Assembly (NCBI GenBank): GCA_046541515.1
Contig: JBKHDD010000005.1
Span: forward strand, 647-64,646
Length of the DNA stretch: 64,000 bases
DNA from: Desulfococcaceae bacterium
GTDB lineage: Bacteria; Desulfobacterota; Desulfobacteria; Desulfobacterales; Desulfococcaceae
Direction of reading: 5' to 3'
Position numbers and translations under genes: made by a program. Below are positions 888-53,276 of this stretch, piece by piece (position 1 is the stretch's first letter; each line of letters starts with the position of its first letter). The notes beneath the pieces are model-generated. The model worked only from the letters and a program-made list of their open reading frames with translations, searched no databases and was not told the origin of the DNA.

Positions 888-1085
888 TTAAGATGGGCGC
901 TCCGCCGGGCGGCGGCGGGATTTTTCCGGGGGAAGGGGAATTTTTCACGATTTTTTTCCGGAATTTTGCCGGGAAATAACCGGTTCCAAATATTCCCCAA
1001 ACATAAACCAAATATAAACCAAATATAAAAATGATACTTGCGCCAAGGGACGACCGCCGCCGCGACAACGTTCCCCGGCCGATTC

Positions 1086-1113
1086 CAATGCCGTTCACTT
1101 TGGGATTTCAGAA
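1086..1113. repeat. solo terminal fragment of the same repeat family
   Basis: CAATGCCGTTCACTTTGGGATTTCAGAAG matches the end CACCGTTCACTTTGGGATTTCCAAAG of the copy at 6948. No central hairpin or second end follows. Confidence 0.6.
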
Positions 1114-1144
1114 GAAAAAAGAAAACCACGCAAAGGAGACGCAC

Positions 1145-4100
1145 ATGAAACCAAATTTACACCGACGATTGCGGCATGGAACCGGACTGCTTTTGGCCCT
1201 GATCCCCTTCGTATTCTTCGGATGCGGGGAACCGACGCCGGAACGGATCGACATCACTCCGCAAAGCCGGGAAATGGCCGTGGGAGAAACGGTCGAATTC
1301 AGCGCCACGGTTCTGAATTCAGACGGCGAGGCCATGCCGGACCAGCCGATATCCTGGCAGGCGACCGGCGAAGCCGGAAGGATCGACGGGACGGGAACGT
1401 TTTCCGCCCGGCAGCCCGGCGAGGCCGAAATTACCGCCACTTCCGGCGAACTCTCCGCCGCGGCCTCGGTGACGGTGACCCCGGCGGCCCTTTCGGATCT
1501 GGAAATTTCTCCTGCGGAGCCCGGCGGCCAGATCGGGGAAGAACTGACCCTGACCATCGCCGGGAAAGACGCCGATGATCAGCCTGCGGGATACCACACG
1601 GTTTCGATCTCCACGCCCACGGAAAATTTGTCTCTCGCCGCGGAGGAGGCCACCCTGGACGAAAATGGGTCGGCCGAGATCGCGTTGACCCTTCCGCCGA
1701 CGCCCGGCGAGGCGGAGGTTCGGCTGACGGTTGGCGAGATGGAAAAAACCGTGGCCATCCAGGTCGATCCACGCCCCATTGCCGATCTCTCGGTCTCGCC
1801 GGAAACGTCCCGGGCCCTGGCGGGCGCCGAGGTGCCGGTGACGATCCAGGCCACGGACGCGGACGGCGAGCCGGCGGGCTTCCACGAGTTGACATTGGAA
1901 CCCGCGGATGACGCCATCGCCGTTTCCGAAGATCGCGTCACCCTGGACGCGGAAGGAACGGCCCAATTCACCGTCACGCTCTCGTCGTCTCCCGGCGCCA
2001 ACGCGGTTGCGCTTCGGATTCCCGGCGAAGAGGACGCCCGGGCCACGCTGGAGATCGCCGGCGCCCCCGTTTCCCGGCTGACCATCTCCCCCCGGGAGGA
2101 CGCCTTCGCCATCGGCCAACAGGTGGAATTCACCGCCACCGGCCACGACGAATTCGGGAACAGCCGGCCCGTCGATCCGGAATGGTCGCTGAGCCAACCG
2201 GTGGCGACGGTTTCGGAAGACGGCAAGGCCACCATGAAGTCACTGGGCGAAGGCATTTTGTTCGCCCGATACCAGGGGGTCCAGGCCGCCCAGCCGTTTT
2301 CGGTGGTTCCGGGCGAGCCGGCGGAAGTGCGAATCGAGCCGAAGGAGCTGAAAGCCGCGGCCGGAGAACGGGTCAATTTCAGCGGCACGGTGTTCAACGC
2401 CTACGAGCAGCCCCTTTCCGTTTCCATCCAGTGGGAGACGGAAGGAGGGATCGGCGAGATCAGCGGAGAAGGCGCATTCGTGGCGCAAACGGCGGGCACG
2501 GGCCAAGTGGTGGCCCGCAGCGGGGACGCCCAAGCCGAAGTCCCGGTGACGGTGGGCCACGGCGAACTTCACGAAATTGACTTTTCCCTGGAAAAATCGG
2601 TCATTCCCGCCGGGGAGACGGTGGAACTCTCCGCCCGGGGGATGGACGCCTTCGGCAACCGGTTTCCCATCCGCCCGGAATGGCTGTTGAGCACCTCCAT
2701 CGGCGAGGTGGAGCAGGAGGAAAACCGGTTCAGGGCGCTTCGCGCCGGCGCCGGCGAAATCATCGCCAAGGTGGGCGAAGTGCTCCGGGGTGCGAGGGTC
2801 GAAGTGGTTCCCGGTTCGCTTTCCCGGCTGGAAATGAAACCCCAGAGCGCCAACCTGATCGCGGGGGAGACGGTGGAATTCGCGGTGGAGGGATTCGACC
2901 GGTTTGACAACCTGATTTCAGTGGAACCCGAATTTTCCCTCAGTCGGGAAATCGGCGAACTGGCGCCGGACGGAACCCTTACGGTGGAAACCGCCGGCAA
3001 CGCGGTGGTCACCGCCAAGGTGGAGGATTTTTCCTCGGAAAGCACGGTGGCCGTGGCCCCGGCGGAAATGGAAACCGCCCGCATCGTTCCGGAAGGCCCC
3101 ATCGGCCTGACGGCCGGAGACGCCCAGGCCCTGAAGGTATCGGGATTTGACGCCTACGGCAATACCGTGACCTCCCGAGTGCAATGGGGGATTCGCCCCG
3201 CGCTGGGACGAATCACCGAAAACGGGGTGTTGCACCCGGAAAAGGCCGGCAAGGGAACGGTCATGGCCACCGTGACCCAGCCGCGAACCGGCCGGACGCT
3301 GGAGGTCGCCACGCCCTTTTCCGTGGCTCCGGGGCAGACCGCCCGCATCGAGGTCCAGCCCGAGGCGGCCGAGCTGGTGGCCGGAGAGTCGGTCCAGTTC
3401 ACCGCCGCCAGCTTCGACCGCTTCGACAACCGAACCGAGGCGGAGATCGACTGGAAGCTGGGTCCGCCGGAACTGGGAGAGATCGACGACACCGGGCGAT
3501 TTAGCGGCGTCCGCGCCGAGACCGGGCAGGTGTCGGCCGTGCACGGCAACGTCGAGGGAACCGCGGCGGTCGCCGTGGTTCCCGCGGAAGTGGCCTTCCT
3601 GAAAATCATTCCGGAATCCATAGATATCCGGGCCGGGGAGCAGGTCTCTCTGGACGCCATCATCGAAGACCGGTTCGGCAACGAAATCCCCGGCCGGGCG
3701 CTGTGGCAGCTTTCCCCGGATTCTCTGGGAACCATCGAAGACGCGGCCGAAGACGCGGCCCTCGCCGGACAAAAAGCCGGGGAGGGAAAGCTCGTCGCCA
3801 CCTTCGAAGACCGGGTGGCCACCGCGCCGGTCACGGTGTCGCCGGGCCCCCTGCACGCCATTGAGCTTACGCCCGCCGGGGCGGAGGTGGCCGCCGGGTC
3901 GACGCTGGAATTCACCGCCAAAGGGTACGATCCCGGCGGGAATCCGGTGTCGGCCGAGGTGGAATGGTCGCTGTCCGAACCGGTGGGAAAATTGGACGAC
4001 GGGGGCACTCTGGAAGCGGAAAAAACCGGCGCCGCCGAAGTTCAGGCCCGGGCGGGCGACGTTTCCGCCACGGTTTCGGTGGAGGTGGTTCCGGGCGAGC

Positions 4101-5917
4101 CCGCGGAGATCCGACTGTCGGAAACCGAGCTGGAACTGACCGCCGGCGAAACCCATGCCTTTTCCTTCGAAGTGTTCGACGGCCAGGGCAACCGGATTCC
4201 CGATCCGGGATATCGCTGGGAGGTGCCCGACGATCGGGGCGTTTTTTCCGCCGACAACCAGTTCACGGCCAAGCGGGCCGGCGAGGGGCCGGTCCGGCTG
4301 GTGGCGGGGCCGGTTACCGAAACCATCTCGGTGACGGTGAATCCCGGCGACATCGCCCGGGTGGAAGTGGCCCCGGCGGAACGGAATCTTCGGGCCGGGG
4401 ATACGCGGCCCTTTACCGCTTCCGGGTTCGACGCCCAGGACAATCCGCTGGAGATTTCCCCGGTCTGGTCGGTGGACGGCGGCGTCGGAACGATCCAAGA
4501 AAGCGGCGAGTTCCAGGCGACCCGGGTGGGCGACGGTTTCGTGGTGGCCCGGATGGATTCGGCCTCCGGCGTGGCGCGGATTTCGGTGGAACCGGGGCCG
4601 GTGGACCGGGTCGAAATTTCGCCGGATTCCGTGGAAATCGCGGCCGGAGAGGTGGCCCGCCTCTCGGCCACCGCCTTCGACGCCTTCGACAATCCGACCC
4701 CGGCCGCGGTCTCCTGGTCCCTGTCCGACGCGGCGGAGGCCGGGGGCGAACTGACCGGCCCGGGAACCTTCCAGGCCCGAACGGTCGGTTCCGGCCACAT
4801 TCTGGCCGCGGCCGAAGGGGTATCGGGTCGGGTTCCCGTGGAAATCTCCCACGGCCCCCTGAGGGAATTGTCCTTTCGGCGGGAGGCCGCGGAGTTGCGG
4901 GCCGGCGAGCGGACCGAACTCCAGGTTTCCGGTCGGGACGCCTTCGGCAACGATGTCCCCGTGGAGCCGAATCTGACCGTTTTTCCGGAAACCCTGGGAG
5001 AAATTGGGGCGGACGGATCGACGTTCGAGGCCCGAGGGGTCGGTTCCGGCCGAATCGAGGCCCGTTTCGGAACCGTCACCGCCGATCTCGCCGTCGCCGT
5101 CCGGCCGGGCGAGCCGACTTCCATCGAAGTTCAACTTCCCGCCGGTTCCCTCATGGCGGGGAAGACCTATTCCCTCCAGGCGATCGGATACGATCCCGGC
5201 GGGAATCCGGTTCCGATTTCGGCGGAATGGGCCGCAAGTCCGGAGGTGGGACGGATTGAAAGCGATACCGGATTGTTCCATGCCCGGAAGGCCGGAACCG
5301 GCCTGGTGGTGGCCTACGGCGACGGCGTCAAGGCCGCGAAAACCGTTGAAGTCCAACCCGGCGATCTCTACAAGCTGTTCCTGTCGCCAAATCCGGTCAC
5401 GGTGGCCTCGGCCACCGTTCAGGAATTCACGGCGAGCGGATACGACGTGGAGGAAAACGAGGTTCCCCTTTCGGAATCGGCCGTGGAGTGGGAAACGGCG
5501 GGCGACATCGGCCAAATGGAAGCCCCCGGCGAATTCCTCGGAACCCGGATGGGCAAGGGCAAGGTGATCGCCCGCACCGGCGACCTGCTGGCGGAGTCCT
5601 ATGTCACGGTCATCCCCGGCCAACCGGTGTTGGCCAACAGCCGCATCCGGGTCACCCACCCCGCCCTTCCGGCCGACGGCAACGCGTTCTCGGAGGTAAT
5701 TGTGGAGGTCCGGGACCGCCACCACAATCCGGTTCCGGAGATTTCGGTCACGCTGGTTTCCAGCCGGCAGGGGGACGAGGTCGTTCAGCCCGGGCCCACC
5801 GGCGAAGACGGCCAGGCCCGGGGCCGGGTCCTTTCCACGGAAGCCGGCGATTCGGTGATTCGAGCGGTCATCGACGGAAGGTCCTTTCCGGACACCGCCC
5901 GGGTGACGTTCGAGTAG
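1145..5917 (+). CDS. giant surface lipoprotein with ~17 tandem Ig-like (Big_2-type) repeats and a C-terminal invasin/intimin-like Big_1 domain
   Basis: ATG at 1145 is preceded by AAGGAG. The N-terminus MKPNLHRRLRHGTGLLLALIPFVFFGC is a signal peptide with a lipobox Cys. About 17 modules of ~90 aa follow, each opening with V.P(G/A)....(I/L).(I/V).P (VTPAALSDLEISP, VVPGEPAEVRIEP, VNPGDIARVEVAP ...). The last ~95 aa (ANSRIRVTHPALPADGNAFSEVIVEVRDRHHNPV..) resemble Big_1. The ORF-track start at 1031 was trimmed. Confidence 0.9.
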   Translation: MKPNLHRRLRHGTGLLLALIPFVFFGCGEPTPERIDITPQSREMAVGETVEFSATVLNSDGEAMPDQPISWQATGEAGRIDGTGTFSARQPGEAEITATSGELSAAASVTVTPAALSDLEISPAEPGGQIGEELTLTIAGKDADDQPAGYHTVSISTPTENLSLAAEEATLDENGSAEIALTLPPTPGEAEVRLTVGEMEKTVAIQVDPRPIADLSVSPETSRALAGAEVPVTIQATDADGEPAGFHELTLEPADDAIAVSEDRVTLDAEGTAQFTVTLSSSPGANAVALRIPGEEDARATLEIAGAPVSRLTISPREDAFAIGQQVEFTATGHDEFGNSRPVDPEWSLSQPVATVSEDGKATMKSLGEGILFARYQGVQAAQPFSVVPGEPAEVRIEPKELKAAAGERVNFSGTVFNAYEQPLSVSIQWETEGGIGEISGEGAFVAQTAGTGQVVARSGDAQAEVPVTVGHGELHEIDFSLEKSVIPAGETVELSARGMDAFGNRFPIRPEWLLSTSIGEVEQEENRFRALRAGAGEIIAKVGEVLRGARVEVVPGSLSRLEMKPQSANLIAGETVEFAVEGFDRFDNLISVEPEFSLSREIGELAPDGTLTVETAGNAVVTAKVEDFSSESTVAVAPAEMETARIVPEGPIGLTAGDAQALKVSGFDAYGNTVTSRVQWGIRPALGRITENGVLHPEKAGKGTVMATVTQPRTGRTLEVATPFSVAPGQTARIEVQPEAAELVAGESVQFTAASFDRFDNRTEAEIDWKLGPPELGEIDDTGRFSGVRAETGQVSAVHGNVEGTAAVAVVPAEVAFLKIIPESIDIRAGEQVSLDAIIEDRFGNEIPGRALWQLSPDSLGTIEDAAEDAALAGQKAGEGKLVATFEDRVATAPVTVSPGPLHAIELTPAGAEVAAGSTLEFTAKGYDPGGNPVSAEVEWSLSEPVGKLDDGGTLEAEKTGAAEVQARAGDVSATVSVEVVPGEPAEIRLSETELELTAGETHAFSFEVFDGQGNRIPDPGYRWEVPDDRGVFSADNQFTAKRAGEGPVRLVAGPVTETISVTVNPGDIARVEVAPAERNLRAGDTRPFTASGFDAQDNPLEISPVWSVDGGVGTIQESGEFQATRVGDGFVVARMDSASGVARISVEPGPVDRVEISPDSVEIAAGEVARLSATAFDAFDNPTPAAVSWSLSDAAEAGGELTGPGTFQARTVGSGHILAAAEGVSGRVPVEISHGPLRELSFRREAAELRAGERTELQVSGRDAFGNDVPVEPNLTVFPETLGEIGADGSTFEARGVGSGRIEARFGTVTADLAVAVRPGEPTSIEVQLPAGSLMAGKTYSLQAIGYDPGGNPVPISAEWAASPEVGRIESDTGLFHARKAGTGLVVAYGDGVKAAKTVEVQPGDLYKLFLSPNPVTVASATVQEFTASGYDVEENEVPLSESAVEWETAGDIGQMEAPGEFLGTRMGKGKVIARTGDLLAESYVTVIPGQPVLANSRIRVTHPALPADGNAFSEVIVEVRDRHHNPVPEISVTLVSSRQGDEVVQPGPTGEDGQARGRVLSTEAGDSVIRAVIDGRSFPDTARVTFE

Positions 5918-14294: not shown

Positions 14295-16241
14295 CTATTC
14301 CGCCATCACCGCGTCGATGTCCAGCAACACTTTGAGGCTGTCCTCCACCTTGGCCATGGCCGAGATGAAGCTGGTTTTCACGTCCGCGCCGAAGTGGGGC
14401 ATGTCCTCGATATCCTTCGCCCGGATGGAGAGGACCTCCAGCACGGTGTCCACCACCACGCCCATGTAGAAGATCTCGCCGTTCCGACTCAGCTCCAGCA
14501 CGATGATGCAGGTGCGATCGGTGTATTCCGTCTCCTCCATGCCGAATTTCAGCCGCAGGTCCATCACCGGAATTACCTGATCCCGCAGCCGAACCACCCC
14601 TTTGATGTAATGGGCCGACTGGGGCAGGCTTCGGATGGGCAGCATCCCGATGATTTCCTTGATCCGGGAAATGTCGATCCCGTATTCCTGATTGGCCAGC
14701 TGAAAGGTGAGATAGGTGCCTTCGGCGTTCAGCATCGACTTGGCTTCGGTGTGGGTCCGGTCCACCTCCCCGCGTTGCAGAATCCGCATTACCGAATCCG
14801 CGTCGTCGGTCAGCATGGGCCGATAGTTGGGGCGATTGGCCACGTCCTCGCCGCAGGCCGCCCGGGTGAATCGGGTGTCGATGAACCGGTCCAGATCGAT
14901 TCGCGCGCCGATGCCCATCTGCTCCACCATGTAGTCCTGAATCACTTGAAAGTCGGCCACCCGGGGATACAGGTCGTCGGTCTTGATGCCGTAGGATTCG
15001 GTCAGCACGTTTTTCAGCAGCGGCGTTTTGAGGCCCAGGGACTTGTCCGGGTCCAGAAAGGCCACCGCGATTTCGGCCGCCTTTTCCGGCTTCTGGGAGA
15101 TAAATTTCCCCGCCTCCACCAGCATTCCGCAGAATTCGTGAACCGCGTCCGGACATTCGTCGATGAAGTCGTCCCGCATGGCCACGATGCAGCAGGGATG
15201 TTGTTGCCACAGTTCTCCGGAAAGAAATTGAAGGTCGGCGATGTTGGAGGCGACGGCCTTGGTGCCCAAGGGTTCCGCCACCATGAACCCGCTGGCGTTG
15301 GGGTGTTCCTTGAGAAACTGGGGCATTTTGACCGGCGCGACCACCTCGAAGTTTACGTCGGCGTCTTTTCCCAGCATGCCGGAGCCGAGCCCCGCCCGTC
15401 GAAAAAAGAGATGAGCCAGCATGTGGTGGATGGAAAGTTTGTGGGGAATCAGAAAGAATTTTTTTCGGAAGAAATCCGGATAGGGCGGGCGGTAATCGCC
15501 CCGGCGATTCCGAACGAAAATGCTGCCGTTTTTGTGGGCCAGCATCACCATCCGGATGGGGACTTGGTATCGGAACAGGTCCATGGCGATGGGGGCCAAG
15601 ATGCAGGCGGCGTCCACCCAGCCGTTTTCCAGGGATTCCGCCACCGGGTTCCAGCTTGACAGGCAGCGGGTTTCCAGCTCGAAATGCTTGGGCGGGGTTT
15701 CCGCGGTCTCCACCATGTGCTTCAGCACCCCCAGCACCAGGTGGTCGGTGATTTGAATATGGGCCACCCGCAGTTTGGTTTTGCCCGAGGCGGCCCGCTG
15801 GGGGCCGGCGGCCTGTTCGGGGCCTCGATCGGCCTCGGTTTCCAACCCCAGGGACTGCCTGATTTTGGCCATCAATTCGTCGCCGTCGAAGGGCTTGGCG
15901 ATGAAGCCGTTGACCCCCGCCTCCATGGCCTTTCGCTGCTGATCGATATCCCCCTGTCCGGTGGCCATCAGGAAAGGCAGCGCCGGTTTTTCGTGATTGT
16001 TCCGAATCCAGGACAGCAGCTCGAAGCCGTCCCGTTTGGGCATGTTCCAGTCGCTGATGACGATGTCGATGTCCAGGGTTTCCTTGAGGACGGCGACGGC
16101 GACATCGCCGTCCTCCGCCTCCCGGATGTTTTCAAAGCCAAGCCGGCGAAGGGTCTGCGTTTCGATCTTCCGCATGACCGCCGCGTCTTCCACCAGCAAA
16201 ACCGATACGCGTTTTGGATCAATGGGCATGGGATTCACCAT
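14295..16241 (-). CDS. three-domain fusion: CheY-like receiver + NrtA/NasS-like (NitT/TauT periplasmic-binding-fold) domain + CheW domain
   Basis: REC: VSVLLVEDAAVMRK..VISDWNMPKRDGFELL..FLMATG..FIAKPF. Middle: LRVAHIQITDHLVLGVLKH..LSSWNPVAESLENGWVDAACILAPIAMD..MVAEPLGTKAV..ELWQQHPCCIVAMRDDF matches the NrtA/CmpA/NasS pattern. C-terminus: TYLTFQLANQEYGIDISRIKEIIGMLPIRSLPQSAHYIKGVVRLRDQVIPVMDLRLKFG is a CheW fold. No signal peptide is present. Confidence 0.85.
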   Translation of the reverse strand: MVNPMPIDPKRVSVLLVEDAAVMRKIETQTLRRLGFENIREAEDGDVAVAVLKETLDIDIVISDWNMPKRDGFELLSWIRNNHEKPALPFLMATGQGDIDQQRKAMEAGVNGFIAKPFDGDELMAKIRQSLGLETEADRGPEQAAGPQRAASGKTKLRVAHIQITDHLVLGVLKHMVETAETPPKHFELETRCLSSWNPVAESLENGWVDAACILAPIAMDLFRYQVPIRMVMLAHKNGSIFVRNRRGDYRPPYPDFFRKKFFLIPHKLSIHHMLAHLFFRRAGLGSGMLGKDADVNFEVVAPVKMPQFLKEHPNASGFMVAEPLGTKAVASNIADLQFLSGELWQQHPCCIVAMRDDFIDECPDAVHEFCGMLVEAGKFISQKPEKAAEIAVAFLDPDKSLGLKTPLLKNVLTESYGIKTDDLYPRVADFQVIQDYMVEQMGIGARIDLDRFIDTRFTRAACGEDVANRPNYRPMLTDDADSVMRILQRGEVDRTHTEAKSMLNAEGTYLTFQLANQEYGIDISRIKEIIGMLPIRSLPQSAHYIKGVVRLRDQVIPVMDLRLKFGMEETEYTDRTCIIVLELSRNGEIFYMGVVVDTVLEVLSIRAKDIEDMPHFGADVKTSFISAMAKVEDSLKVLLDIDAVMAE

Positions 16242-16575
16242 GAGGGACGAGATTCAGGCGACGTTTCGCCGCCGGTGCCGGGCGCCGAGCCCGCCAAGGG
16301 CCAAATCCAACCACGCACCGGGACGGCCTGGCGACCGCGGAACCGCCGCAAGGGCGCTTTCCGGGGCCGCCCGCCAATGAAAAAGGGTCCAATGTCGGGC
16401 GGGATGACAGGGCGACTCTAAAAGGGAACGGCCGGGGGGTCAAGGGAAATGCGGAAAATGAAAACGACGACCCTCCGAACCGAACCGAACCGGATGGGAT
16501 GGGCTGAATGGGAAAGAGAAATTTTGTTTTATCCGTCTCGACTTGGGAATGAAAAAGTATGGATAAAACAACCCG

Positions 16576-16848
16576 TTGAGTCAACGTCGTCGGATGGGCG
16601 GAGCGTTCAACAGTTCCCTGCGCCGCAGGAACTCAACTTTTCGCAGAAAGTCGAACACTTATGCGAAAAATGAAAGCGGCCTTCAAAAAATTCTCGACGT
16701 GTATTGGGTGGTTCACAATTTCATGCGAACACATTTCACCACGAAGCAAGTTCCGGCCGTTTCCATAGGAATTCTTGACGAAGCGATTTCCTGGGAAGAA
16801 CTCTTGATGATTCCAACGGCCGCCCAATGGACCGTCCCATTCAACTGA
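16576..16848 (+). pseudogene. C-terminal remnant of a DDE-type IS transposase
   Basis: The translation ..AFNSSLRRRNSTFRRKSNTYAKNESGLQKILDVYWVVHNFMRTHFTTKQVPAVSIGILDEAISWEELL matches the conserved C-terminal tail of many IS transposases (..FSK....HNF.R.H..L...TPA...G......W.ELL). No catalytic N-terminal part is present. A neighbouring frame (16449-16673) carries a shifted ..ELNFSQKVEHL piece. Confidence 0.6.
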
Positions 16849-16888
16849 ACCAGTGCCCCCCATTTAATCTGATCTTAAATGGCTGTAT

Positions 16889-18475
16889 TTACACCCACCC
16901 GACAGCCACCACCAACACCCGCACCCCGCCAACCAATTCCTCACCGGAAATCTGCCCCAAAACATCTTCATCTTCGACGGGCACAAACACGGCGAGGGTG
17001 ATGGACGTAAGGTTCAATTTTTTTGCATACCCCGCCGCCTGTTCTTTGGACTTTTCCAGCTCCACCTGATCCTTGTAGCTTTTTACTTCGATAACGCCCC
17101 GTTGGCCGCCGCAACGAAGGTGCAGGTCCACCCTTCCGTTGCCGGTGGGAAATTCCGGGCTGATGGCGCAACGGGAACCGACCGCCTGATACAGCCAGAA
17201 ATACAGGTGAAAATGGCCCACGGCCTCACGCAAGTGCAGATCCGTCCGCCGGGGCTGGTCTTTCCAGGGATTAAGTCCCTTGGCCTTCAGGCGCGCCAGA
17301 TACTTTTTATAGCGATCCAAAAGTGCCGGAAGGTCGAGTTCGGTTTTATCGAACACATCGGCCAGCCGGTCCAGCGGTTCGAGCGCGAGGATGGGGGAGC
17401 GTTCCCCGATGATGTCCAGGGTGAGCGCGTTGTACAGCCGGTGCTGTATGAACGGGTTGGCGAAACGGCAGATTTCCGTTTTTCCGCCATGGGAATCCGC
17501 CACGGTTTCCACATCGATAATGCCGTGCAGATAGGCGTAGGCGCACCATTCGGAATCGATGGAAAAAGGGATGTCCGACCGCGTGAACAGTTCGAGAATA
17601 TGATTCCGGTATTCTCCCTTGGCTTTTTTCACGAGATTCAGGATGGTGTTGTTCCATTCCTTCACCCGCGCCAGGCGGAACACATCCTTCCAGGTATCCA
17701 AACCAATGGTTTTTTCTTGGCCGGGATTGTAGGTTTCGGTCAGCAGTTCGCCGAACCAGCACACCAGCCCCGGCTGTCCCCGAGTGGCATCGTTGACGCC
17801 TTGCACTACCGCGGATTCCACCTTCTGGCCGCTCTCGTTCTGATACTGCAAGAACAATTCTTCCACCTCTTCCGGTTCAAAATTGGGAACATGCAGGGAG
17901 CGCTGAATATTGAAAGGCGAACCCCGTTCGCTTTCGACCCCGAGGACCGCCCGGACCCCGATCAAGGCCAGGCCGTGAAGGACAAAATTTTTTCGGTCCA
18001 GATACATGTCCCGAAACATGCTTACCAGATGATCGATCACCATGGGCGGCAGTTTGTCAAACTCGTCGATAAACAGGATCAGAGGCTTTTTAAAAATTCC
18101 GGCGCTTCGGGAAAACAGGTTTCCAAATGTCTCCCAGTCTGCCGGCGCTTCAACGGGTACGTTAAAAAACCGCTGGAAAAAGAGAGGAACCCGGGAAAGA
18201 AACGCCTCCGGTGGATCTTCCGGCTTCAGAATGACGCCTTGCATCGACATTAACCCGATTGAAAACTGATCGGAATGATGTTTTTCGATTTCCCTCTTCA
18301 CCTGTCGCATGAGCCACGTCTTTCCGGTTTGCCTCGGCGCCCAAACGGTAAAATAATGCCCCCCTTTTTCAGGATTTCCAATTAGCTGCTCTTTGGTCCG
18401 GTTCACCAGTGCCACACGTTCCACGCAGAAATTTTCCTCGCAATCCACCGGACCGTAAGAATTGAATCGTCTCAT
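16889..18475 (-). CDS. AAA-type (AAA_35/ORC-like) ATPase fused to a C-terminal PD-(D/E)XK nuclease-like domain
   Basis: Walker A is VWAPRQTGKTWL and Walker B is LILFIDEFDKL. SPFNIQRSLHVPNFEPEEVEELF resembles the AAA_35 signature. The C-terminus ..AISPEFPTGNGRVDLHLRCGGQRGVIEVKSYK fits a PD-(D/E)XK (PDDEXK_9-like) core. The gene is visibly more AT-rich than its neighbours. Confidence 0.75.
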   Translation of the reverse strand: MRRFNSYGPVDCEENFCVERVALVNRTKEQLIGNPEKGGHYFTVWAPRQTGKTWLMRQVKREIEKHHSDQFSIGLMSMQGVILKPEDPPEAFLSRVPLFFQRFFNVPVEAPADWETFGNLFSRSAGIFKKPLILFIDEFDKLPPMVIDHLVSMFRDMYLDRKNFVLHGLALIGVRAVLGVESERGSPFNIQRSLHVPNFEPEEVEELFLQYQNESGQKVESAVVQGVNDATRGQPGLVCWFGELLTETYNPGQEKTIGLDTWKDVFRLARVKEWNNTILNLVKKAKGEYRNHILELFTRSDIPFSIDSEWCAYAYLHGIIDVETVADSHGGKTEICRFANPFIQHRLYNALTLDIIGERSPILALEPLDRLADVFDKTELDLPALLDRYKKYLARLKAKGLNPWKDQPRRTDLHLREAVGHFHLYFWLYQAVGSRCAISPEFPTGNGRVDLHLRCGGQRGVIEVKSYKDQVELEKSKEQAAGYAKKLNLTSITLAVFVPVEDEDVLGQISGEELVGGVRVLVVAVGWV

Positions 18476-18520
18476 ATCCTTATGCCTCCAATTTCAAATT
18501 CGGTTGCCTCGCAGCCAGTT

Positions 18521-18638
18521 CCCCATCAAAATAAACGGCGCCCAATAAAAAGGATGGGCATACGGCCGCTCCGGCCCGGGCCAGTTCCAGCGACCCCACC
18601 ACGCCCCCCTCTACTGGGGACCGTTTATTTTGGTGGGG
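18521..18638. repeat. 18-bp inverted repeat pair enclosing 82 bp
   Basis: CCCCATCAAAATAAACGG (18521-18538) and CCGTTTATTTTGGTGGGG (18621-18638) are reverse complements with one mismatch. They lie just upstream of the ATPase start. Confidence 0.7.
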
Positions 18639-19079
18639 CATTGGTTGTGACTAACCCCTCTTTGGGGAGCCTACCTCCATATCTATAATAGCCCTCTCTT
18701 CCCGCCGATTTACAAAAAATTCCTTTGCTATGTCTTTCTTTAAAGTTACCCCCCCAATTTTCCACAAAAAATGGAAACCTCCCTCTTATTTTCCATACAT
18801 CCCACCCTTTTCAAATCAAATCAACTGTATTTTCGGAATATAACCCGCCTTGCTCTTCATCAAGCCCTAACAAAAACCGGTTATTGTTTTACCAATAGGT
18901 TGAAAAATTTTCCGCAGGATGGCACAGGAAGCCCTTTGGGTTCGGGGTGCGCTTGGTCTTTGCCGCCAAAAATGGGCCGGGAACAACCCGCCCGTCCGAG
19001 ACGGGCGTCCACGGTCGCCCTTCCGTCCGCAGGGCGGCCAAAAAGGAAGATATCCATCACGAAAAAATGGGGAGGATAC

Positions 19080-21137
19080 ATGCCAAAACTCCACATGGGA
19101 TTGCGGTCCAAAATGGTGGTTCAGCTCGGGGGCGTCCTGCTGATTTCGTTCGCCCTGATGCTCTATTTCGTGTCGCTGCGATCCGCGGAAACGGCGAAAG
19201 GGTCCGCCCGCCAATTCGCGGAAACGCTGGCGGACCAATACGGCGCGGAAGTGGAGGCCGAACTGGAGGCCGCCATGAACACCGCCCGCACCACGGCCCA
19301 GTTTTTCGCCGGGCTCAAAAACAGCGGCCTTCCCATGGAGCGCCCGGCCCTTGTCCGGGGCTTGCGGGGCGTGTTGTCTCAATCGCCCGGGCTGTTCGGC
19401 ATCTGGACCGTCTGGGAACCCGACGCCCTGGACGGCCGGGACGCCGAATTCGTCGACGCCCCCGGCCACGACGGAACCGGACGCTTCATCCCCTACTGGA
19501 ATCGCCAGGGCGGACTACATTTGGAGCCCTGCGTGGATTACGACGCCCCGGGTCTCAACGGCGACTACTACCGACGGCCCATGACCACCGGCCATGAAAT
19601 CCTGCTGGAACCGGTGGCCTACCAGATCGGCGGGGAGCTTGTGACGGTGGTCAGCGCCATCGTGCCCATCGAAACCGACGCGGGACGGCTGGGGGTGGTC
19701 GGCGTGGATTTTTCCATGGACCGGATGGCGGAAATCGCCAGTGGAATCCGTCCCTTGGGGGCTGGATTCGGTCTTGTCGCCGCCCAGAACCACAACGTCG
19801 CGGCGGGGCCGGAGGCGGAATGGAGCGGAAAACCGACGACGGAGGTGCTGGATCTGCCGGAAAAGGTTCACGAGGCCGCCCACGCCGGCGAAAGCATCCG
19901 GCACCATGTCCATCTGGACGGCCGGGAATACCTCGCCGCCTCCTCCGCCATTCGCGTCGGGAAGGCGGAGGAGGCCTGGCGGCTTTGGGTGGCGCTTCCC
20001 ATGCGGGAAGCCATGGCGGAGGTCCGCTCCCTTCGCCAGAGGATGCTGGCCGTTTCCGCCGGGGCGCTGGCGATCCTTTTCGCGGCGATCTTCATTCTTT
20101 CCCGCCAGATCACGCGAAAGACCCGGAAGCTGGCCCGGGAACTCGGGGAGGATTCCGAGGACCTGAACACCGCCTCTCGGGAGGTGGCCGCCATCAGCCG
20201 GCAAATTTCCGAAGGGGCCGGCGAGCAGGCGGCGGGGTTGGAGGAAACGTCGGCTTCGCTGGAGGAAATTTCGGCCCTCAGTCGAGAAAACGCCGGTCGC
20301 GTGGCGGAAATCGACCGCGTCATGCGGGAGGACGCCTCGGAAAGCTTCCAAGAGATCCAGCGGCGGATGTCCGACATGAACCAGGCCGCCGCCGCGGTCC
20401 AGAGGGCCGGGGAGGAGACGGCGCGGATCATCCGGACCATCGACGAAATCGCCTTTCAGACCAATTTGCTTTCCCTGAACGCGGCGGTGGAGGCGGCCCG
20501 GGCGGGCGAAGCCGGCGCGGGATTCGGCGTGGTGGCGGAGGAAGTGCGGGCCCTGGCCATCCGGGCGGCCGAGGCCGCGCGGGAATCGGCCGGCCTGATC
20601 CAGAAAACCCGACGCCACAACGCCGAGATCGTGGAACTGGCCGAAAAGGTCAACGGCGCGGTGGCCGGCAACCACGACATCGCCGAACGGGTGACCCGGG
20701 CCATGGCCGACATTCGTTCCGCCTCCGACCACCAAGCTGAAGGACTGGGGGAAATCAGCCGGGCCGCGGCGGAAATGGACCGGGTCGTTCAGCAAAACGC
20801 CGCCTCCGCCCAGGAAGCCTCCGCCGTCGCATACGCCTTGCTGGAACGGGCCGACCGAAGCCGCAAATCCGTGGCCGAACTGCTCGCGGTGATCGCGGGG
20901 AAAAATGGGAATTCCCGCTTGGCCCCTTCGATTCCGGAGAAAGTGGAATCCGGTGTCTCCCTCTGTCGGTTCACCCGCCATCCAGTTTCCCGTCGCGGCA
21001 GCGCCAAAAAGAACGGTTCATCGGCGAGGGGTGGTGAAAGTCCCAAGGTCATCGGCCCTCCCGCCGAGAGCCTTCCAAGCCCGCCGGAATGGGAAAAGAA
21101 AGAGGGGAAGGAAGCGGAAAACCGGGAAAACGTTTAA
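19080..21137 (+). CDS. methyl-accepting chemotaxis protein with periplasmic Cache-type sensor
   Basis: ATG at 19080 follows GGAGGA. TM1 is [19 protein letters not shown]. The Cache-like region includes [44 protein letters not shown]2 is followed by the signalling hairpin [38 protein letters not shown]. The ORF-track start at 18771 was trimmed. Confidence 0.9.
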
Positions 21138-21287
21138 CAAAACCCTAACTTGACCCATTCTCGGCCGGAAAGATAAACGTTATAATTTATCCAATAAAGG
21201 ACGGCGGCGTTTCGTGTGGTTCGATCGACCAGGGCACCCCCTGCCGTCCGGATCGATCGGATCGGTTTTTTTTCCGGGGAAACTCCC

Positions 21288-22319
21288 ATGGAAGGGTGTT
21301 TGAACGCTTTGAAAAAAATCCTCATTGTCGATGACTCCCCCGTTGCGCGGATGATGCTGAAAAGCTGTCTGCCCAAGGCCAAGGAATTTTCCCTGGCCGA
21401 GGCCGGAAACGGGCGGGAGGCCATCGAGAAATATTTCGATTTCGGCCCGGAGCTGACCTTCATGGATCTGACCATGCCGGAGATGGACGGCTATGCCGCC
21501 ATCGAGCGCATCCGCGAAAGAGACCCGGAGGCCCGGATCGTGGTGATGACCGCCGACGTTCAAAAGCGGGCGGTGGAGCGGGTTCAAAACCTGGGAGCCT
21601 TGGACATCCTGAAAAAACCGCCCCGTGCCGAGGTGGTGTTCCAGACCCTCTCCCGCATCGAAGCCGAGATGACCCAAACGCCCGTCCGGACGGTCTTTTC
21701 CGAAAGGGAAAAGGACATCCTCCAGGAGATCATGAACATCGCCTTCGGCAACGCGGCGGCCGATCTCTCGGAAATTATTGACATTTACGTGGAGCTGACC
21801 GCCCCGAAGGTGCGACTGATCGGCGCCGCGGAAATTCCCGGCCACATTTCGGAGCGGATGCGGCTCGGCGACGACGGCACCAGCCTGGTGGTGCAGAATT
21901 TCTGGGGCAATTTCAACGGAATGGGGCTTCTGGTCCTTCCGGAAAACGCGGGCATGGGCCTCATTCGGGTGATGCAGGACCTGGACGGCGACGAGGACGC
22001 CGACCGGCCCCTGGCCCACCAGGAACGGGAAATCCTGATGGAGGTGGGCAACATCCTCATCGGGGCCTGCGTGGGCAAAATCTGCGAACTGCTGGACACC
22101 TTCGTCACCTACACGCCGCCGCGCATCGTTTCCGAGGCCGGACGAGACGGCCCGTCCTTCCTGGACTCCCTGGAGGAAGACCGGTTCGCCATCTTGCTGG
22201 AAACGGTGTTTCGTTTTGAAAGCGTGGACATCAACGGCCAATTGCTGCTGATCACCAGCCAGAACGCCATCGAGTGGCTTCGCAAGGCGCTCAACGCCTT
22301 TATGGAACAGTGGGCATGA
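21288..22319 (+). CDS. CheY-like receiver fused to a CheC-type phosphatase domain
   Basis: REC: KILIVDDSPVARMM..TFMDLTMPEMDG..VVMTAD..ILKKP. Two CheC-type sites are present: DILQEIMN-x22-P and EILMEVGN-x22-P, matching the D/S-x3-E-x2-N-x22-P consensus. Confidence 0.85.
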   Translation: MEGCLNALKKILIVDDSPVARMMLKSCLPKAKEFSLAEAGNGREAIEKYFDFGPELTFMDLTMPEMDGYAAIERIRERDPEARIVVMTADVQKRAVERVQNLGALDILKKPPRAEVVFQTLSRIEAEMTQTPVRTVFSEREKDILQEIMNIAFGNAAADLSEIIDIYVELTAPKVRLIGAAEIPGHISERMRLGDDGTSLVVQNFWGNFNGMGLLVLPENAGMGLIRVMQDLDGDEDADRPLAHQEREILMEVGNILIGACVGKICELLDTFVTYTPPRIVSEAGRDGPSFLDSLEEDRFAILLETVFRFESVDINGQLLLITSQNAIEWLRKALNAFMEQWA

Positions 22320-23263
22320 AGCTCGACCAGCTATTCGACATGATCGACATCGGCATAGTGGTGCTGGATTTGCGGCTCGCCGTGTGTCGATGGAACCGCT
22401 GGATGGAGATCCACAGCGGCATTTCCGCCGAAGAGATTATTGGCAGGCCGGCCTTCGACTTTTTCCCGAATTTGGATTCCCCTCGGTTCCACCGCAATTT
22501 CAAGGCGGTTTCCACCTTCGGCAACTTCGCCTTTTTCTCCCGAAAGCTCCACCGATATCTCTTCCCCCTTCCCGTTCCCGCCCTTTCCGACGACGCCGCC
22601 GTTTTCGACCACATGCAGCAGACCTGCACCATGGGACCGCTTCGGGACGACGACCAGGCGATCCGCCACGTCTACATCATGGTCCAGGACGTCACCGAAA
22701 TCGCCGCATACGAACGAAAACTGCTGAAAATGAACATGCGGGACGGACTGACCGGGGCCTTCAACCGCCGGTACCTGGAAATCCGGCTGCGGGAGGAGTT
22801 GGAGCGATACGCCAGGTACGGCCGGCCTTTCAGCGTCATCCTTCAGGACCTGGATTGGTTCAAGGCCGTCAACGACACCCATGGCCATCTCTGCGGCGAT
22901 TTCGTCCTGAAAAAATTCACCGAACTCATGAAAACCCGACTTCGAAAATCGGACCTGTTCGCCCGTTTCGGCGGGGAGGAGTTCTGCGTGCTGCTGACGG
23001 AAACCGAAGCCGAAAAGGCGTTGCTGTTGGCCGAAGAACTGCGCGCGCTGACGGAACAGACTGAGTTCGAATGGCGGGGAACGAAACTTTCCATTTCCAT
23101 CAGCCAAGGTGTTTCCGAAATCCAGTCCGACGAGGACGGACCGGAATCGGTTCTTGAGCGCGCCGATCAGGCGCTGTACCGGGCAAAAATGGAGGGCCGC
23201 AATCAGGTGGTCGTCCATCGGAAAAAGGAAAAACCATGCGTTTCCGTTTTTCCCAAAAAATGA
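22316..23263 (+). CDS. PAS-GGDEF diguanylate cyclase
   Basis: ATGA start/stop overlap with the upstream gene. Has an N-terminal PAS-like region, then [50 protein letters not shown] (GGEEF active site with an RxxD I-site five residues upstream). Confidence 0.9.
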
Positions 23264-25185
23264 TCGCCCTGGTGGTCGCCGCGGTCCTGGTTTGTTCGGC
23301 GGCCATCGGACTGCTGACCTACCGGGTGGTCGCCGAGGGTTTCCAGGCCGAGGCCCGGCAGAACATTGTCGCCGCCGGCCGGGTGGTGGACGGCTTGATC
23401 GAAGGCCGCCGAGAGCGGTGCCTTCAGGCGGCGGGCCTGATCGCCGGGATGGCCGAAGTCCAGGGGGCCGTGGTCCGGGGGGACGCCGCCGATCTTCAAG
23501 AACGCGGGGCGGAATGGATGGCCGCCAGCGGCGCCGATTTCATGACCTTCACCGACGCTTCGGGAAACGTGATCGCCCGTGCCCACGACGGTCGAAAGGG
23601 AGATTCCATCGCCAACCAGGAAATCCTGCGGATCGCCTTGGAAGGCCGAGCCGCGAGCGGCATCGGGGCCGGAAAACTGGTGGGACTGTCCATTCGGGCC
23701 GTTGCGCCGGTGACGGTCGATGGCCGGTTGGCGGGAGCCGTGCTGACGGGCATCCATCTGACCCGGGACAACGATTTCGTGGACGAAATCCGGGAAACAC
23801 TGAGGGTTCACGCCACCGTGTTCCACGGCGACCGCCGGGTGTCCACCACCATCCGCCGGGCCGGGAAACGGATTCGCGGCACCCGGATGGAGAATCCCGC
23901 CGTCACCCGGACGGTGTTGGAAGAAGGAAAAACCTTCTACGACGTGAACGAAATTTTGGGAGAAGACTTCACCGCGGCCTACTGGCCGATCCGGTCCGTC
24001 TCCGGCGAAAACTTGGGCATATGGTTCGTGGGAAAGGAGCGCTCTTTCTTGCAACGGGCCTTTCTGGACATTCTGCGTTCGATTCTTCCGACCTCGGCGG
24101 GGGTGGGGCTGCTGGTTTCTCTGGCCGCATGGCTGACCGTTCGCCGGAGTCTGGCCCCGGTCTTCCCCTGCATCCGGTTCGCAAAGGGATTGGCCAAGGG
24201 ACGGCTGTCCGGGCGCCTGCCTTCGGGCCGCTCCGATGAAATCGGCGAGCTGGCGGCGGCCCTCGGCCGTATGGCCGCCCGGCTGAGGGAGGTCGTCCGG
24301 GAGGTGGTTCACGGCGCCGAAAATGTTCGATCCGGAAGCCGGCAAGTGAGCGTCGGCGCCCAACAAATCGCGGCCGGGTCCGAGCGACAGAAAATCGCCG
24401 CCGAGGCGCTGATGCGGGCCATGGGAGAGCGGGCCGCGGCGGCGGAAGCGATGGCCGAATCCTCCGCCGCGAGAGCGGAGGAAAGCGGCGCGGCGGCCAC
24501 GGAGGCGGTGAAGGCCCTGAGGGCCATCGCGGAGCAGATTCGGGTGGTGGAGGAGATCGCCCGGCAAACCGACCTTTTGGCCTTGAACGCGGCGGTGGAA
24601 GCCGCCCGGGCAGGAGAGGCCGGCAGGGGGTTCGCCGTTGTGGCGGATGAAGTGAGAAGCCTCGCGGAGAAATCCCAAACCGCCGCCAATTCGGTGGCGC
24701 GCATTTCCGAAAAAACCTTCGAAATCGCCGAGCGGTCCGGCTCCATCCTCGCCGAAATGGTTCCGGATATCCGGCGAACGGCGGAGCAGGTCCGGGACAT
24801 CAGCGAAGCCTGTCGGGCCGGCGGTTCCGGGGCGGAGACGATTCGCGCCGCCTTCGATCAATTCGACAACGTGATCCGTGAAAACGCTTCCGCGGCGGAA
24901 CAAATGGCCGCCGCGGCCGAAGAGCTGAACGCCCAGGCCGACCAGTTGGGCGAGACGATACGTTTTTTCCGGGGAGAAGCGCAATCTGAAACGGGATTCG
25001 GCGCAAAGACGATTTCCATCAACCCGTCTTCGCGCGGCGGCTGTGAAATTCCGACAAGCCAACCCTTCAGGGGGGCGAGGCGACGGCGCCGCGGTTCCAC
25101 TCCGCCATCCGTTCTTCCGCCGGGGCGGCCGCCTTCGCGGCGTCCAGGGCCGCGCGAACCGTCCGGGCCAGTTGAAGCTGGGTGA
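23236..25185 (+). CDS. methyl-accepting chemotaxis protein with double Cache-like (Cache_3-Cache_2-type) sensor and HAMP
   Basis: TM1 is [19 protein letters not shown]. The periplasmic region includes ..[57 protein letters not shown]... TM2 and HAMP (..[17 protein letters not shown]) follow, then the signalling domain [38 protein letters not shown]. The start overlaps the GGDEF gene by 28 nt. Confidence 0.9.
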
Positions 25186-44709: not shown

Positions 44710-46172
44710 TCTTCTTCCCGACAGTTCCGGGTTGGGATCACCATTTCCACCACCAGCCCCTCCCGGTCGGCGCGATTGGCGGCCCGACAGGTCCCGCCCG
44801 CCTCCCAGACGACCACCGCGACCATGGAAAGCCCCAACCCCATTCCGGGCACCTCTCCGGTCTGGTCCTTGTCCCCCTGATAGTAGGGATACCAGATTCT
44901 TCCCAGCTGAAGCGGAGAAAGCCGGATTCCGTCGTCGGTTACGCGGGTTCGAATTCCCTCGGGGGTCGAATCCATCTGAATTCCCACGGCAGGGCGTTTT
45001 TCGGGATGAAATTTCCAGGCGTTTTCCAGCAATTCCAACAAAAGATCCTGGAAGAGCGGGCGGGAAAGGGGGATTTCAACCGATGCCAGGTCCGCCGGAA
45101 ACGCCACCGTCGGCGGTTCGATTCCCAGCGAAGCGGCCGCCTCTTTGGCCAGCCCGCCAATTTCCCCCACCGTGCAACGCTCGGCCCAGCACAATCCGGC
45201 GGAAGTTGTTTGAATATAACGGAAAATATCCAAAATTTCCCTCTGGAGCCGATGCGCGCTGTCGGCCGCCATTTGCGTGAACTCCGCTCGTTCCGAAGGC
45301 TCCATCATTTCCGACTCCGCGACCAGCAGATCCAGGGCGCCGGTCAGCCCGTTGAGCGGGGTCTTGAGCTTGTGGCTGATCTGGCGGTGAAGAGACCAGG
45401 TCATTTTTCGTCCGTCCACCTGGCTCGTCACGTCCCGCAACCGGACCAGGAAGGGTTCCGCCTCCCGGCCGGAAGCGGGCATCAGATCCACCTGGAGCCA
45501 CAGCGCGTTGGCGGCCAGGCAGTCCGGGCGAACCAGATACCGGGGCGCCTCGGCGGGTTCCGGCCAGTTTTCCCAAAGGGATTCGGGGCGTCGCCGGTAC
45601 TCCGGAAGGGCCAGTTCGGGAAACGGCGTCTCCGGCAAGGATTCACCCGACGCGTTCTCCGGCAAGGAGAGAAACCGGCGGGCCTGTGGATTGGCGTACA
45701 GGATCCGTCGTTCCGGCGAAAGGGCCAAAAAGCCGTCGTCGTCCTGCTCCACCACCCATTGGAAGCGACTGCGTTCGTAGACGAGTCGCCGATACCGGTT
45801 GAGGCGCAACAGCGTTCGGACCTGGGCGCGGAGTTCTCCCCGGTTGAAAGGCTTGGACAAAAAATTGTCGGCGCCGGCCTCGATGCCATCCAGACGAGAT
45901 TGGGCGTCGTCCAGGGCCGTGACCATTATGATCGGGATTTCGGAGGTCTTCGGGTCCTCGCGAAGGTTTCGGCACACTTCCTGACCGTTCATGCCCGGCA
46001 TCATCACGTCCAGCAGGATCAGGTCCGGCGGGGTTTCCCGCGCCATTTCCAGGGCCTGGGACCCGTTTTCGGCGAAGCGCAGGCGATAGCTTTCCGAATG
46101 CAGCAGGGCCGCCAGGGTGTCCCGCGCGGATTCGGTGTCGTCAACAATCAGAATGTCCGGCTCGCTGGCCAT
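44706..46172 (-). CDS. receiver-sensor histidine kinase fusion (REC, PAS-like linker, HisKA-like, HATPase)
   Basis: REC: DILIVDDTESARD..LILLDVMMPGMNG..IMVTAL..FLSKPF. H-box-like QISHKLKTPLNGL. N box LLENAWKF and G2 GMGLGLSMV. Its stop overlaps the next start (ATGA at 44706-44709). Confidence 0.85.
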   Translation of the reverse strand: MASEPDILIVDDTESARDTLAALLHSESYRLRFAENGSQALEMARETPPDLILLDVMMPGMNGQEVCRNLREDPKTSEIPIIMVTALDDAQSRLDGIEAGADNFLSKPFNRGELRAQVRTLLRLNRYRRLVYERSRFQWVVEQDDDGFLALSPERRILYANPQARRFLSLPENASGESLPETPFPELALPEYRRRPESLWENWPEPAEAPRYLVRPDCLAANALWLQVDLMPASGREAEPFLVRLRDVTSQVDGRKMTWSLHRQISHKLKTPLNGLTGALDLLVAESEMMEPSERAEFTQMAADSAHRLQREILDIFRYIQTTSAGLCWAERCTVGEIGGLAKEAAASLGIEPPTVAFPADLASVEIPLSRPLFQDLLLELLENAWKFHPEKRPAVGIQMDSTPEGIRTRVTDDGIRLSPLQLGRIWYPYYQGDKDQTGEVPGMGLGLSMVAVVVWEAGGTCRAANRADREGLVVEMVIPTRNCREEE

Positions 46173-47736: not shown

Positions 47737-47786
47737 TTGTTTCCATGAATCCCGCCGATACGGTTCGAGGGACCTCGCCATTCCCT

Positions 47787-48899: not shown

Positions 48900-49045
48900 G
48901 GCGGAATCCTTTCCGGAAAGGGCGCGACGAGGCGTCAACGGATTTTCGGATTGTGATCGCGGGGCGCGGGACGGCCGCTCGTCGGCCGAGGGGGGCACGG
49001 CGTCGAGGCGGAATCGGGGACGAAGGGCGCCCGGGGATATCGGAT

Positions 49046-53273: not shown

Positions 53274-53276
53274 GGA

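Follow-up and report, generated by a model that had tools for sequence, protein, structure and literature searches.

A receiver–NrtA-fold–CheW fusion protein with a predicted Cys/His-rich pocket from a Desulfococcaceae bacterium

Introduction

In textbook accounts of bacterial chemotaxis all chemical input arrives via methyl-accepting receptors; CheW, which in arrays docks between the tips of chemoreceptors and CheA-P5, and CheV are treated as passive or adaptational scaffolds. Here we report on a gene of a Desulfococcaceae bacterium whose product joins three parts on one polypeptide: a CheY-like receiver (REC), a cytoplasmic binding-protein domain of the NrtA fold (Pfam family NMT1_2) and a CheW domain. 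The gene occupies positions 14295..16241 of the (-) strand in a stretch of 64,000 nucleotides (assembly GCA_046541515.1, contig JBKHDD010000005.1, positions 647 to 64,646), referred to below as the window; all coordinates are those of the window. An earlier note, made from the letters of this stretch and a list of its open reading frames (ORFs), had drawn attention to the unusual architecture and proposed, by analogy with NasS, a sensor of nitrate, nitrite or bicarbonate coupled to chemoreceptor arrays.

Each of the three domains belongs to a known family, and cytoplasmic sensors of the NrtA fold have been described (NasS and the C-terminal regulatory domains, CRDs, of NrtC and CmpC). Among proteins of similar plan is CheV (Bacillus, Helicobacter, Vibrio), in which a CheW scaffold domain and a phosphorylatable CheY-like receiver likewise share one polypeptide; the fusion protein is presumably docked in the array and phosphorylated by CheA, as CheV is. 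The order of the parts differs, as the earlier note recognized: CheV reads CheW–REC, whereas here REC is N-terminal (residues 14-128), CheW is C-terminal (510-647) and an NrtA-fold domain of ~320 residues (151-470) lies between them, with REC predicted to pack on this inserted domain and not on CheW.

The CRDs of NrtC and CmpC repeat, in the cytoplasm, the fold of the cognate exported binding protein and serve as internal solute sensors. The middle domain of the fusion protein resembles them in having two lobes and a C-terminal helical subdomain (expectation value, E, about 1e-8; TM 0.69). CRDs are fused to an ATPase of the ATP-binding cassette (ABC) type, whereas the fusion protein carries REC and CheW and no ABC_tran domain; it also has Cys in place of the nitrate-binding Lys, in a pocket that appears rich in Cys and His. 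In the NasS–NasT system an NrtA-like cytoplasmic nitrate sensor works with a REC-ANTAR regulator, and here, too, a sensor of the NrtA fold would work with a receiver. Unlike NasS and NasT, the two are covalently linked, in an arrangement that AlphaFold2 predicts to be fixed (predicted TM-score, pTM, 0.90); the output is CheW and not an ANTAR RNA-binding domain, and the receiver has all residues of the phospho-acceptor site. All nitrate ligands are retained in NasS (PMC3795266); they are not in the fusion protein.

A further comparison is with 3UN6, an ABC binding protein of S. aureus crystallized with Zn (PDB entry). Binding proteins encoded in clade-B carbon monoxide dehydrogenase (CODH) operons resemble 3UN6 and, in models, hold a metal by two Cys and one or two His; their substrate is not known (PMC13592312, a 2026 study). 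SaoX, a binding protein similar to SsuA, carries a CC motif in its cleft, where a metal site is predicted; CC motifs are rare among binding proteins (Haft and Gwadz, bioRxiv 10.1101/2022.07.06.499078). The clade-B CODH-associated and SaoX-type proteins share with the fusion protein a predicted metal site. In contrast to it, they and 3UN6 are exported or lipoprotein components of transport without signaling domains.

Full-text searches of the literature turned up no description of a REC–NMT1_2–CheW protein; a published survey of CheW architectures left out those with fewer than 40 sequences. Within the literature searched, the combination, its Cys/His pocket and the wider REC–NMT module with its spectrum of outputs are undescribed. 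The earlier note's view of the architecture as uncharacterized therefore stands as regards publication; as regards rarity it does not, the three-domain gene being present in at least 41 species-level genomes. The reading that we favor, with a probability of about 0.5, is that the fusion protein acts as a phosphorylation-gated cytoplasmic sensor of a metal, or of a metal-bound or sulfur ligand, tethered by CheW to chemoreceptor arrays.

The fusion gene and its domains

The gene is complete, with an ATG start and 648 aa plus stop, and its GC content at third codon positions (GC3 = 0.80, from the ORF list and composition) is high, like that of the surrounding genes. Full-length homologues with the same three Pfam domains and 55-94% identity show that this is a real gene with REC, NrtA-fold and CheW domains. 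All three Pfam matches lie well above gathering thresholds, and the domain order given in the earlier note is that of the 648-aa ORF.

The receiver (residues 14-128; 15858..16202, (-)) is matched by Pfam Response_reg at E 1e-26. The codon of its predicted phospho-acceptor, Asp64, lies at 16050..16052 (-) in the motif ISDWNMP, which matches CheY (a check of the translation places ISDWNM at 16041-16058); the residue is invariant in 57/57 aligned sequences. E18, D19, D64, T94 and K116 are invariant in one family alignment, and D19, D64, T94 and K116 in a second. As judged from these residues, the receiver has a complete phospho-acceptor site. A low-complexity linker, poorly conserved in family alignments, connects REC to the binding fold (residues 129-150; 15792..15857, (-)).

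The middle domain (residues 151-470; 14832..15791, (-)) is an NMT1_2/NrtA-fold domain of the class F binding proteins, recognized by Pfam, PDB matches and Foldseek. Pfam NMT1_2 (PF13379) covers residues 151-392 (E 3e-25, 89.8 bits), and the domain includes the C-terminal helical subdomain known from NrtA and CmpC-CRD; NCBIfam SsuA_fam matches residues 294-458 weakly. Profile searches thus assign this region to a family of binding-protein folds, as had been supposed, and the motifs quoted in support of that supposition (LRVAHIQITDH, SSW..G.VDAACILAP, MVAEP, W..HPCCIV) are all found in the translation. Since the protein starts with its receiver domain, it lacks a signal peptide, and the middle domain, flanked by REC and CheW, is cytoplasmic; on both points the first reading of the sequence was right.

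A second linker, with two short helices (residues 471-509; 14715..14831, (-)), leads to the CheW domain (residues 510-647; 14301..14714, (-); translation checked). Pfam CheW (PF01584) matches at E 1e-31, with 109.8 bits against a cut-off of 23.5, over profile positions 2-135 of 138. The best NCBIfam models for the two ends of the protein are CheW and CheY, the latter on the receiver with 84 bits. An alignment by phmmer to E. coli CheW (2ho9_A; E 5e-25) covers CheW residues 18-150, and the equivalents of E38, G57 and R62, which we take from CheW genetics to be functionally important, are retained. E529 and R553 of the CheW domain are invariant in one family alignment.

A full-length AlphaFold2 model built from 57 homologues has a mean predicted local distance difference test score (pLDDT) of 86.3 and a pTM of 0.73. 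Its only low-confidence stretches are in the two linkers, at residues 131-150 and 495-498; pLDDT is 60-79 in the first linker in both models that we built and below 50 at residues 495-498 of the second. The other model, of residues 1-475 (REC and binding fold), has a pLDDT of 91.3 and a pTM of 0.90. Two domains joined by a floppy linker of ~20 residues would not be expected to score 0.90 unless their placement relative to each other were predicted with confidence. The models suggest that REC packs on the binding-fold domain and that CheW is flexibly tethered. Compared with the PDB by Foldseek, the middle domain is best matched by 3UN6 (E 1.5e-19, TMt 0.89), followed by NrtA (TMt 0.70) and the CmpC CRD (TMt 0.69), with further matches to CmpA, TauA and SsuA; the C-terminus matches E. 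coli CheW in the core signaling unit (8c5v_E, TMt 0.84).

The pocket of the binding fold

The residues of CmpC-CRD that hold nitrate are W319, H408, G452 and K481. The last of these (K269 in NrtA, K480/484 in NrtC) sets specificity, and the bicarbonate binder CmpA has Glu at the same position (PMC13287603, PMC10945777). These positions were mapped onto the fusion protein by pairwise and profile alignments to CmpC-CRD, NrtA and 3un6, which agree for three of the four nitrate ligands. The Trp (W319 of CmpC, W102 of NrtA) is kept as W197; the Gly (G452 of CmpC, G240 of NrtA) is A322; and the specificity Lys is C351, with 'HPEK' of NrtA and 'HPGK' of CmpC aligned to the motif 'HPCC' (H348 P349 C350 C351; 15189-15200, (-)). 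The region of NrtA Q155 is deleted.

Conservation was assessed in 236 proteins, of which 134 contain CheW and 102 are REC–NMT proteins. W197, N198, G239, S240, S270, H272, P324, W345, H348, P349 and C351 are present in 236/236, and H236, A322 and C350 in 235/236. Residues specific to the REC forms are H161, Q163, H167, N198, R244, H267 and E299. According to these alignments the cleft is Cys/His-rich and invariant, and is without the specificity residue for nitrate or bicarbonate.

The proposal of the earlier note, a NasS/NrtA-type sensor of nitrate, nitrite or bicarbonate coupled to arrays, can be weighed against this pattern. Cytoplasmic nitrate sensors of the NrtA fold exist, the domain belongs to NMT1_2, and a comparison with the NrtA and CmpC pocket residues finds the Trp in place and a His at one of two positions, H272 or H277, depending on the alignment. 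The same comparison finds the Gly replaced by Ala and the Lys, which is Glu in CmpA, replaced by a conserved Cys. On this basis the NasS/NrtA nitrate pocket was rejected: at the Lys position Cys stands in 236/236 proteins, and at the Gly position Ala in 235/236. NasS, which keeps its nitrate ligands where the fusion protein does not, ceases to be a guide at the level of the pocket; the loss of the Q155 region points the same way, as does the closer match to 3UN6 than to NrtA. We consider a ligand of the nitrate or bicarbonate type very improbable.

Of the PDB sequences matched by the domain (3un6, the CmpC/NrtC CRDs, CmpA, NrtA), 3UN6 is the nearest, with a profile E of 3e-23 versus 2e-9 for NrtA (2g29, a match that extends to NrtA residue 326). 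H236, H267, S270, H272 and the CC pair are identical in 3UN6, where 'YCC' aligns to 'PCC'. By this likeness to Zn-bound 3UN6, a metal ion is the most likely occupant of the pocket (W197, H236, S270, H272, H348, C350, C351). The 25 best NCBIfam matches of the fusion protein do not include SaoX.

A conserved metal site need not be a sensory one. With a complete CheW and a CheY-like REC, the protein could be a CheV-like scaffold serving adaptation or as a phosphate sink, its middle domain a metal-stabilized spacer or oligomerization domain that senses no ligand: a Cys2/His site can be structural only, and 3UN6 has Zn and no known substrate. Against this stands the location of the conserved residues, which occupy ligand-cleft positions of NrtA and CmpC (W197, the His of the S-x-H motif, the A-E-P loop and the K269 position). 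Two further observations, on the reuse of the module and on its transporter-associated relatives, bear on the same alternative and are taken up below; with these included, we regard it as unlikely.

Distribution and reuse of the REC–NMT module

The architecture is carried by more than 120 sequence clusters. The best 120 clusters matching the full protein are all of the three-domain type, 55-94% identical over their full length, and include Desulfonema magnum, Desulfococcus and KSB1. The count of at least 41 species-level genomes comes from a scan of species-representative genomes that returned 80 loci. Carriers include Desulfatibacillum alkenivorans DSM 16219, Desulfacinum hydrothermale DSM 13146, members of the Desulfarculales, Desulfatiglandales, Desulfobulbales and Geopsychrobacteraceae, Rosettibacter primus and other Ignavibacteriota, and one metagenome-assembled genome of the Chloroflexi. 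Overall, the carriers belong to the phyla Desulfobacterota, Ignavibacteriota, Chloroflexota and KSB1.

A search with the middle domain revealed an equally large set of two-domain REC–NMT1_2 proteins of ~458-505 aa, 54-62% identical. An HMMER search, exhaustive over 1.8 billion representatives, gave 81 relatives below the threshold of 1e-30, among which ~35 close ones have an N-terminal REC–NMT and a variable C-terminus. The Pfam partners found in this position are CheW, CheA cores (H-kinase_dim, HATPase_c and two CheW matches), SpoIIE/PP2C, an anti-sigma-kinase with STAS, a hybrid histidine kinase, TPR and a nitrite/sulfite-reductase domain. Because REC–NMT occurs with such varied C-terminal parts, we conclude that it is a reusable module, with CheW as one of several outputs. 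Its reuse with PP2C, STAS/anti-sigma kinase, histidine kinase and NIR_SIR outputs fits an input role, and the many outputs outside chemotaxis, typical of input modules, speak against the CheV-like scaffold considered above.

In three relatives (P0246, P0253 and P0254) REC–NMT1_2 takes the place of the N-terminal region in a CheA core; Pfam detects no Hpt domain in them at E<1e-5, and the architecture is not mentioned in a 2023 survey of CheA architectures. In another (P0262), REC–NMT1_2 is fused to NIR_SIR_ferr and NIR_SIR, the 4Fe-4S domains of sulfite/nitrite reductases; this fusion may hint at the class of ligand (sulfite or nitrite), or at an enzyme under regulation. Proteins with NMT and CheW and no REC are mostly truncated proteins at contig edges, and one (P0121) may be genuine. 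A neighbor-joining tree of the binding-fold domain, built without bootstrap, places most three-domain proteins in one block beside paraphyletic two-domain forms, a branching order that is suggestive only.

Neighboring genes in other genomes

Relationships between neighbors were examined by clustering the ORFs of 90 loci. In the 80 loci examined for a shared neighbor, the three-domain gene adjoins, in lineage-limited fashion, a rhodanese (8 loci), an HDOD protein (5-6), CheW (1-2) or an ABC transporter (1). The REC–NMT module is recurrently associated with chemosensory genes. One locus (L009) has a che operon with the order MCP, [REC-NMT], MCP, CheA-REC, CheW, CheB, CheR (MCP, methyl-accepting chemotaxis protein); another (L008) reads MCP, CheW, MCP, [REC-NMT]; and in L003/L013 a stand-alone CheW gene lies immediately upstream of the three-domain gene. 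Directly upstream of the che cluster in L009/L010 (3583-6642) are genes for an HTH-REC regulator and for both subunits, large and small, of a NiFe(Se) hydrogenase, which could be a hydrogen sensor linked to chemotaxis.

The two-domain REC–NMT gene closes a conserved operon in at least 13 loci of the Desulfobacteraceae; the operon runs in the order cytoplasmic NMT paralogue, ABC ATPase, binding protein exported by twin-arginine translocation (Tat), permease, REC–NMT. The Tat binding protein has ~400 aa and an RRxFLK Tat signal. In Desulfonema magnum (L001) it is the three-domain gene that precedes genes for the ATPase, Tat binding protein and permease. Equivalents of W197, H236, G239, S240, S270, H272, A322, P324, W345 and HPCC are carried by 10/10 Tat binding proteins. 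The best NCBIfam matches of the neighboring ABC genes are SaoX, SaoA and SaoP, all below threshold (59.9 bits against a cut-off of 300 bits for the Desulfonema binding protein versus SaoX), then SsuA, NtrB and NtrCD.

The paralogue that heads the ABC operon (~310 aa, NMT1_2, no signal peptide; L060, L061, L065, L069, L071-L073, L075, L078, L085, L087) is degenerate at the pocket: the CC pair is present in only about one third of these proteins, and most have Gln in place of H272. The paralogue may serve as a separately encoded, CRD-like regulatory subunit.

The presence of the full pocket signature in binding proteins for ABC import, which must bind a transported solute, is the second observation that tells against a spacer function. 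It also raises the possibility that the module acts on the transporter: the NrtA-fold domain could dock on the nucleotide-binding subunits of an importer of the NitT/TauT type, as NrtC-CRD and CmpC-CRD do, with either CheA and phosphorylation controlling transport or the state of the transporter coupled to the array in the manner of taxis mediated by the phosphotransferase system. The operons of the Desulfobacteraceae and the Desulfonema magnum arrangement speak for this; CRDs do act on their own transporter by binding its nucleotide-binding domains (PMC13287603, PMC10945777), and the C-terminal helical subdomain is strongly conserved, with an LGLKxP insertion specific to the REC forms. Most three-domain loci, the window included, nevertheless have no such transporter nearby, and the other parts to which the module is fused (CheA cores, PP2C, STAS) suggest signaling outputs rather than control of transport. 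We rank this explanation a little below the CheV-like scaffold, and thus also as unlikely.

The rhodanese is a two-domain protein with the active-site loop CFKG[SA]R that adjoins the three-domain gene at L024, L033, L034, L038, L043, L047, L052 and L077. These loci fall into two lineages that differ in gene orientation and between which the three-domain proteins share only 45% identity. An HDOD protein often lies on the side opposite the rhodanese. Recurrence of the rhodanese in two such lineages is one of several hints that the vicinal Cys and the His might instead form a redox-active or gas-reactive center and report O2, reactive oxygen species, sulfide, NO or CO to the array, for avoidance or energy taxis in strict anaerobes. 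The others are the invariance of the CC pair and of several His across the family, the finding of the family only in anaerobic lineages such as sulfate reducers and Ignavibacteriota and the relative fused to a sulfite/nitrite-reductase domain. This evidence is all circumstantial and includes no conserved redox partner. Moreover, the same motif occurs in periplasmic binding proteins for ABC import, which favors reversible binding of a solute over redox switching. A thiol/metal redox or gas sensor is accordingly improbable in our estimation, less favored than a regulator of transport and more so than a nitrate sensor.

A proposed mode of action

Under the reading that we favor, that of a phosphorylation-gated sensor tethered by CheW, REC and the clamshell-like binding fold would form one integrated input module. 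CheA would phosphorylate the receiver at D64, as in CheV, and the clamshell would bind a small ligand in its Cys2/His-rich pocket, the ligand being either the held metal itself or a soft ligand (a sulfur species, for example) bound there, and neither nitrate nor bicarbonate. Tat-exported binding proteins of NitT/TauT-type ABC importers encoded beside paralogues have the same pocket signature; accordingly, the cytoplasmic domain would gauge how much of the imported solute is inside the cell, just as the CRDs of NrtC and CmpC gauge nitrate. Ligand-driven closure and the state of phosphorylation would then alter the coupling between receptor and CheA by means of the flexibly tethered CheW. Chemical input would enter at the level of the scaffold, as a taxis signal dependent on transport or metabolism. 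The identity of the ligand and the docking to the array we infer.

A number of points weigh against this interpretation. The evidence on the family consists throughout of sequences and predicted models. The metal and the ligand are deduced from the alignment to 3UN6 and from the models of two papers, and a purely structural metal site would account equally well for the high conservation of the pocket. The register of the pocket His is ambiguous, being H272 in the alignment to NrtA and H277 in that to CmpC; H272 is favored because the S-x-H motif is common to 3UN6. The fixed REC:NMT interface is argued from pTM alone, which is indirect. Genomic context offers limited help: among the loci clustered no universal neighbor of the three-domain gene was found and context is mostly not conserved, an ABC transporter adjoins only one three-domain locus (Desulfonema magnum, L001), and a search for CheA found none encoded in the 64-kb window.

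A broader proposal takes in the family as a whole: REC together with the NrtA fold and its Cys2/His pocket may be an unrecognized, widespread module of anaerobes that senses an ABC-imported metal, metal-bound or sulfur ligand, with output to arrays (through the CheW and CheA-core fusions) and to partner-switching cascades. We advance this tentatively, as a proposal less secure than the one for the fusion protein itself and still ahead of each alternative discussed above.

If the favored reading is right, a scaffold with its own conserved ligand pocket and receiver would give signals a second way in, one that reports how much of an imported solute the cell contains, and chemosensing would enter at the scaffold or kinase and not through a methyl-accepting receptor. 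In many sulfate reducers, Ignavibacteriota and Chloroflexota this module is also connected to CheA cores, PP2C phosphatases and STAS partner-switchers. Since it is widespread, one solved member would annotate hundreds of proteins now labeled 'CheW', 'response regulator' or 'ABC transporter substrate-binding protein', and it would offer a handle on the substrate of 3UN6-like, CODH-associated and SaoX-like binding proteins with a CC cleft, a question raised in two recent papers. The finding should be notable to specialists in chemotaxis and two-component signaling; its mechanism and ligand are what we infer.

Genomic context in the window

The fusion gene is convergent with prfC. A scan for promoters and terminators around it gave counts no better than shuffled sequence. 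On its upstream side lies a gene for an AAA_35-type ATPase (16889-18475, (-)), which separates it from a divergent set of chemosensory genes in an apparent operon (18771..25185, (+)). By Pfam the set encodes an MCP with dCache (18771-21137, (+)), a REC-CheC/CheX protein (21216-22319, (+)), a PAS-GGDEF protein (22274-23263, (+)) and an MCP with sCache_3 (23236-25185, (+)), and thus joins chemoreceptors, a response regulator resembling CheY-P phosphatases and a diguanylate cyclase. It is possible that these genes are the partner set of the fusion protein. The same neighborhood is kept beside a 94%-identical orthologue (locus L007); it is not conserved in more distant genomes.

The 2.6 kb from 16457 to 19039, comprising the AAA_35 ATPase gene and the 5' end of the MCP gene, correspond to 364 bp in the otherwise syntenic L007. 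GC content in the region 16-20 kb is 0.56-0.57, below that of the flanks, and the N-terminus of the MCP differs between the window and L007 (788 aa versus 685 aa). The segment looks like a recent insertion or deletion.

In all, the window contains three MCPs, MotAB and many two-component genes; searches of its 64 kb for a NitT/TauT ABC transporter and a rhodanese found neither. MotB (52506-53273, (-)) and MotA (53277-54059, (-)) lie downstream of a response regulator of the REC-HD type (HD_5, HD-GYP-like; 54061-55233, (-)), so that the stator genes adjoin a regulator of the cyclic di-GMP type (52506-55233, (-)). Given the presence of MotAB, the organism is probably flagellated. In a long ORF of 1022 aa (46141-49209, (-)) the Pfam matches are limited to two receiver domains, both in the C-terminal half, with none in the N-terminal ~480 residues; a shorter alternative ORF (47787-49190) overlaps it, and the gene model is therefore uncertain. 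Near the start of the window a 1628-aa protein with Big_1, Big_2 and invasin-type Ig-like domains (1031-5917, (+)) is probably a large surface adhesin.

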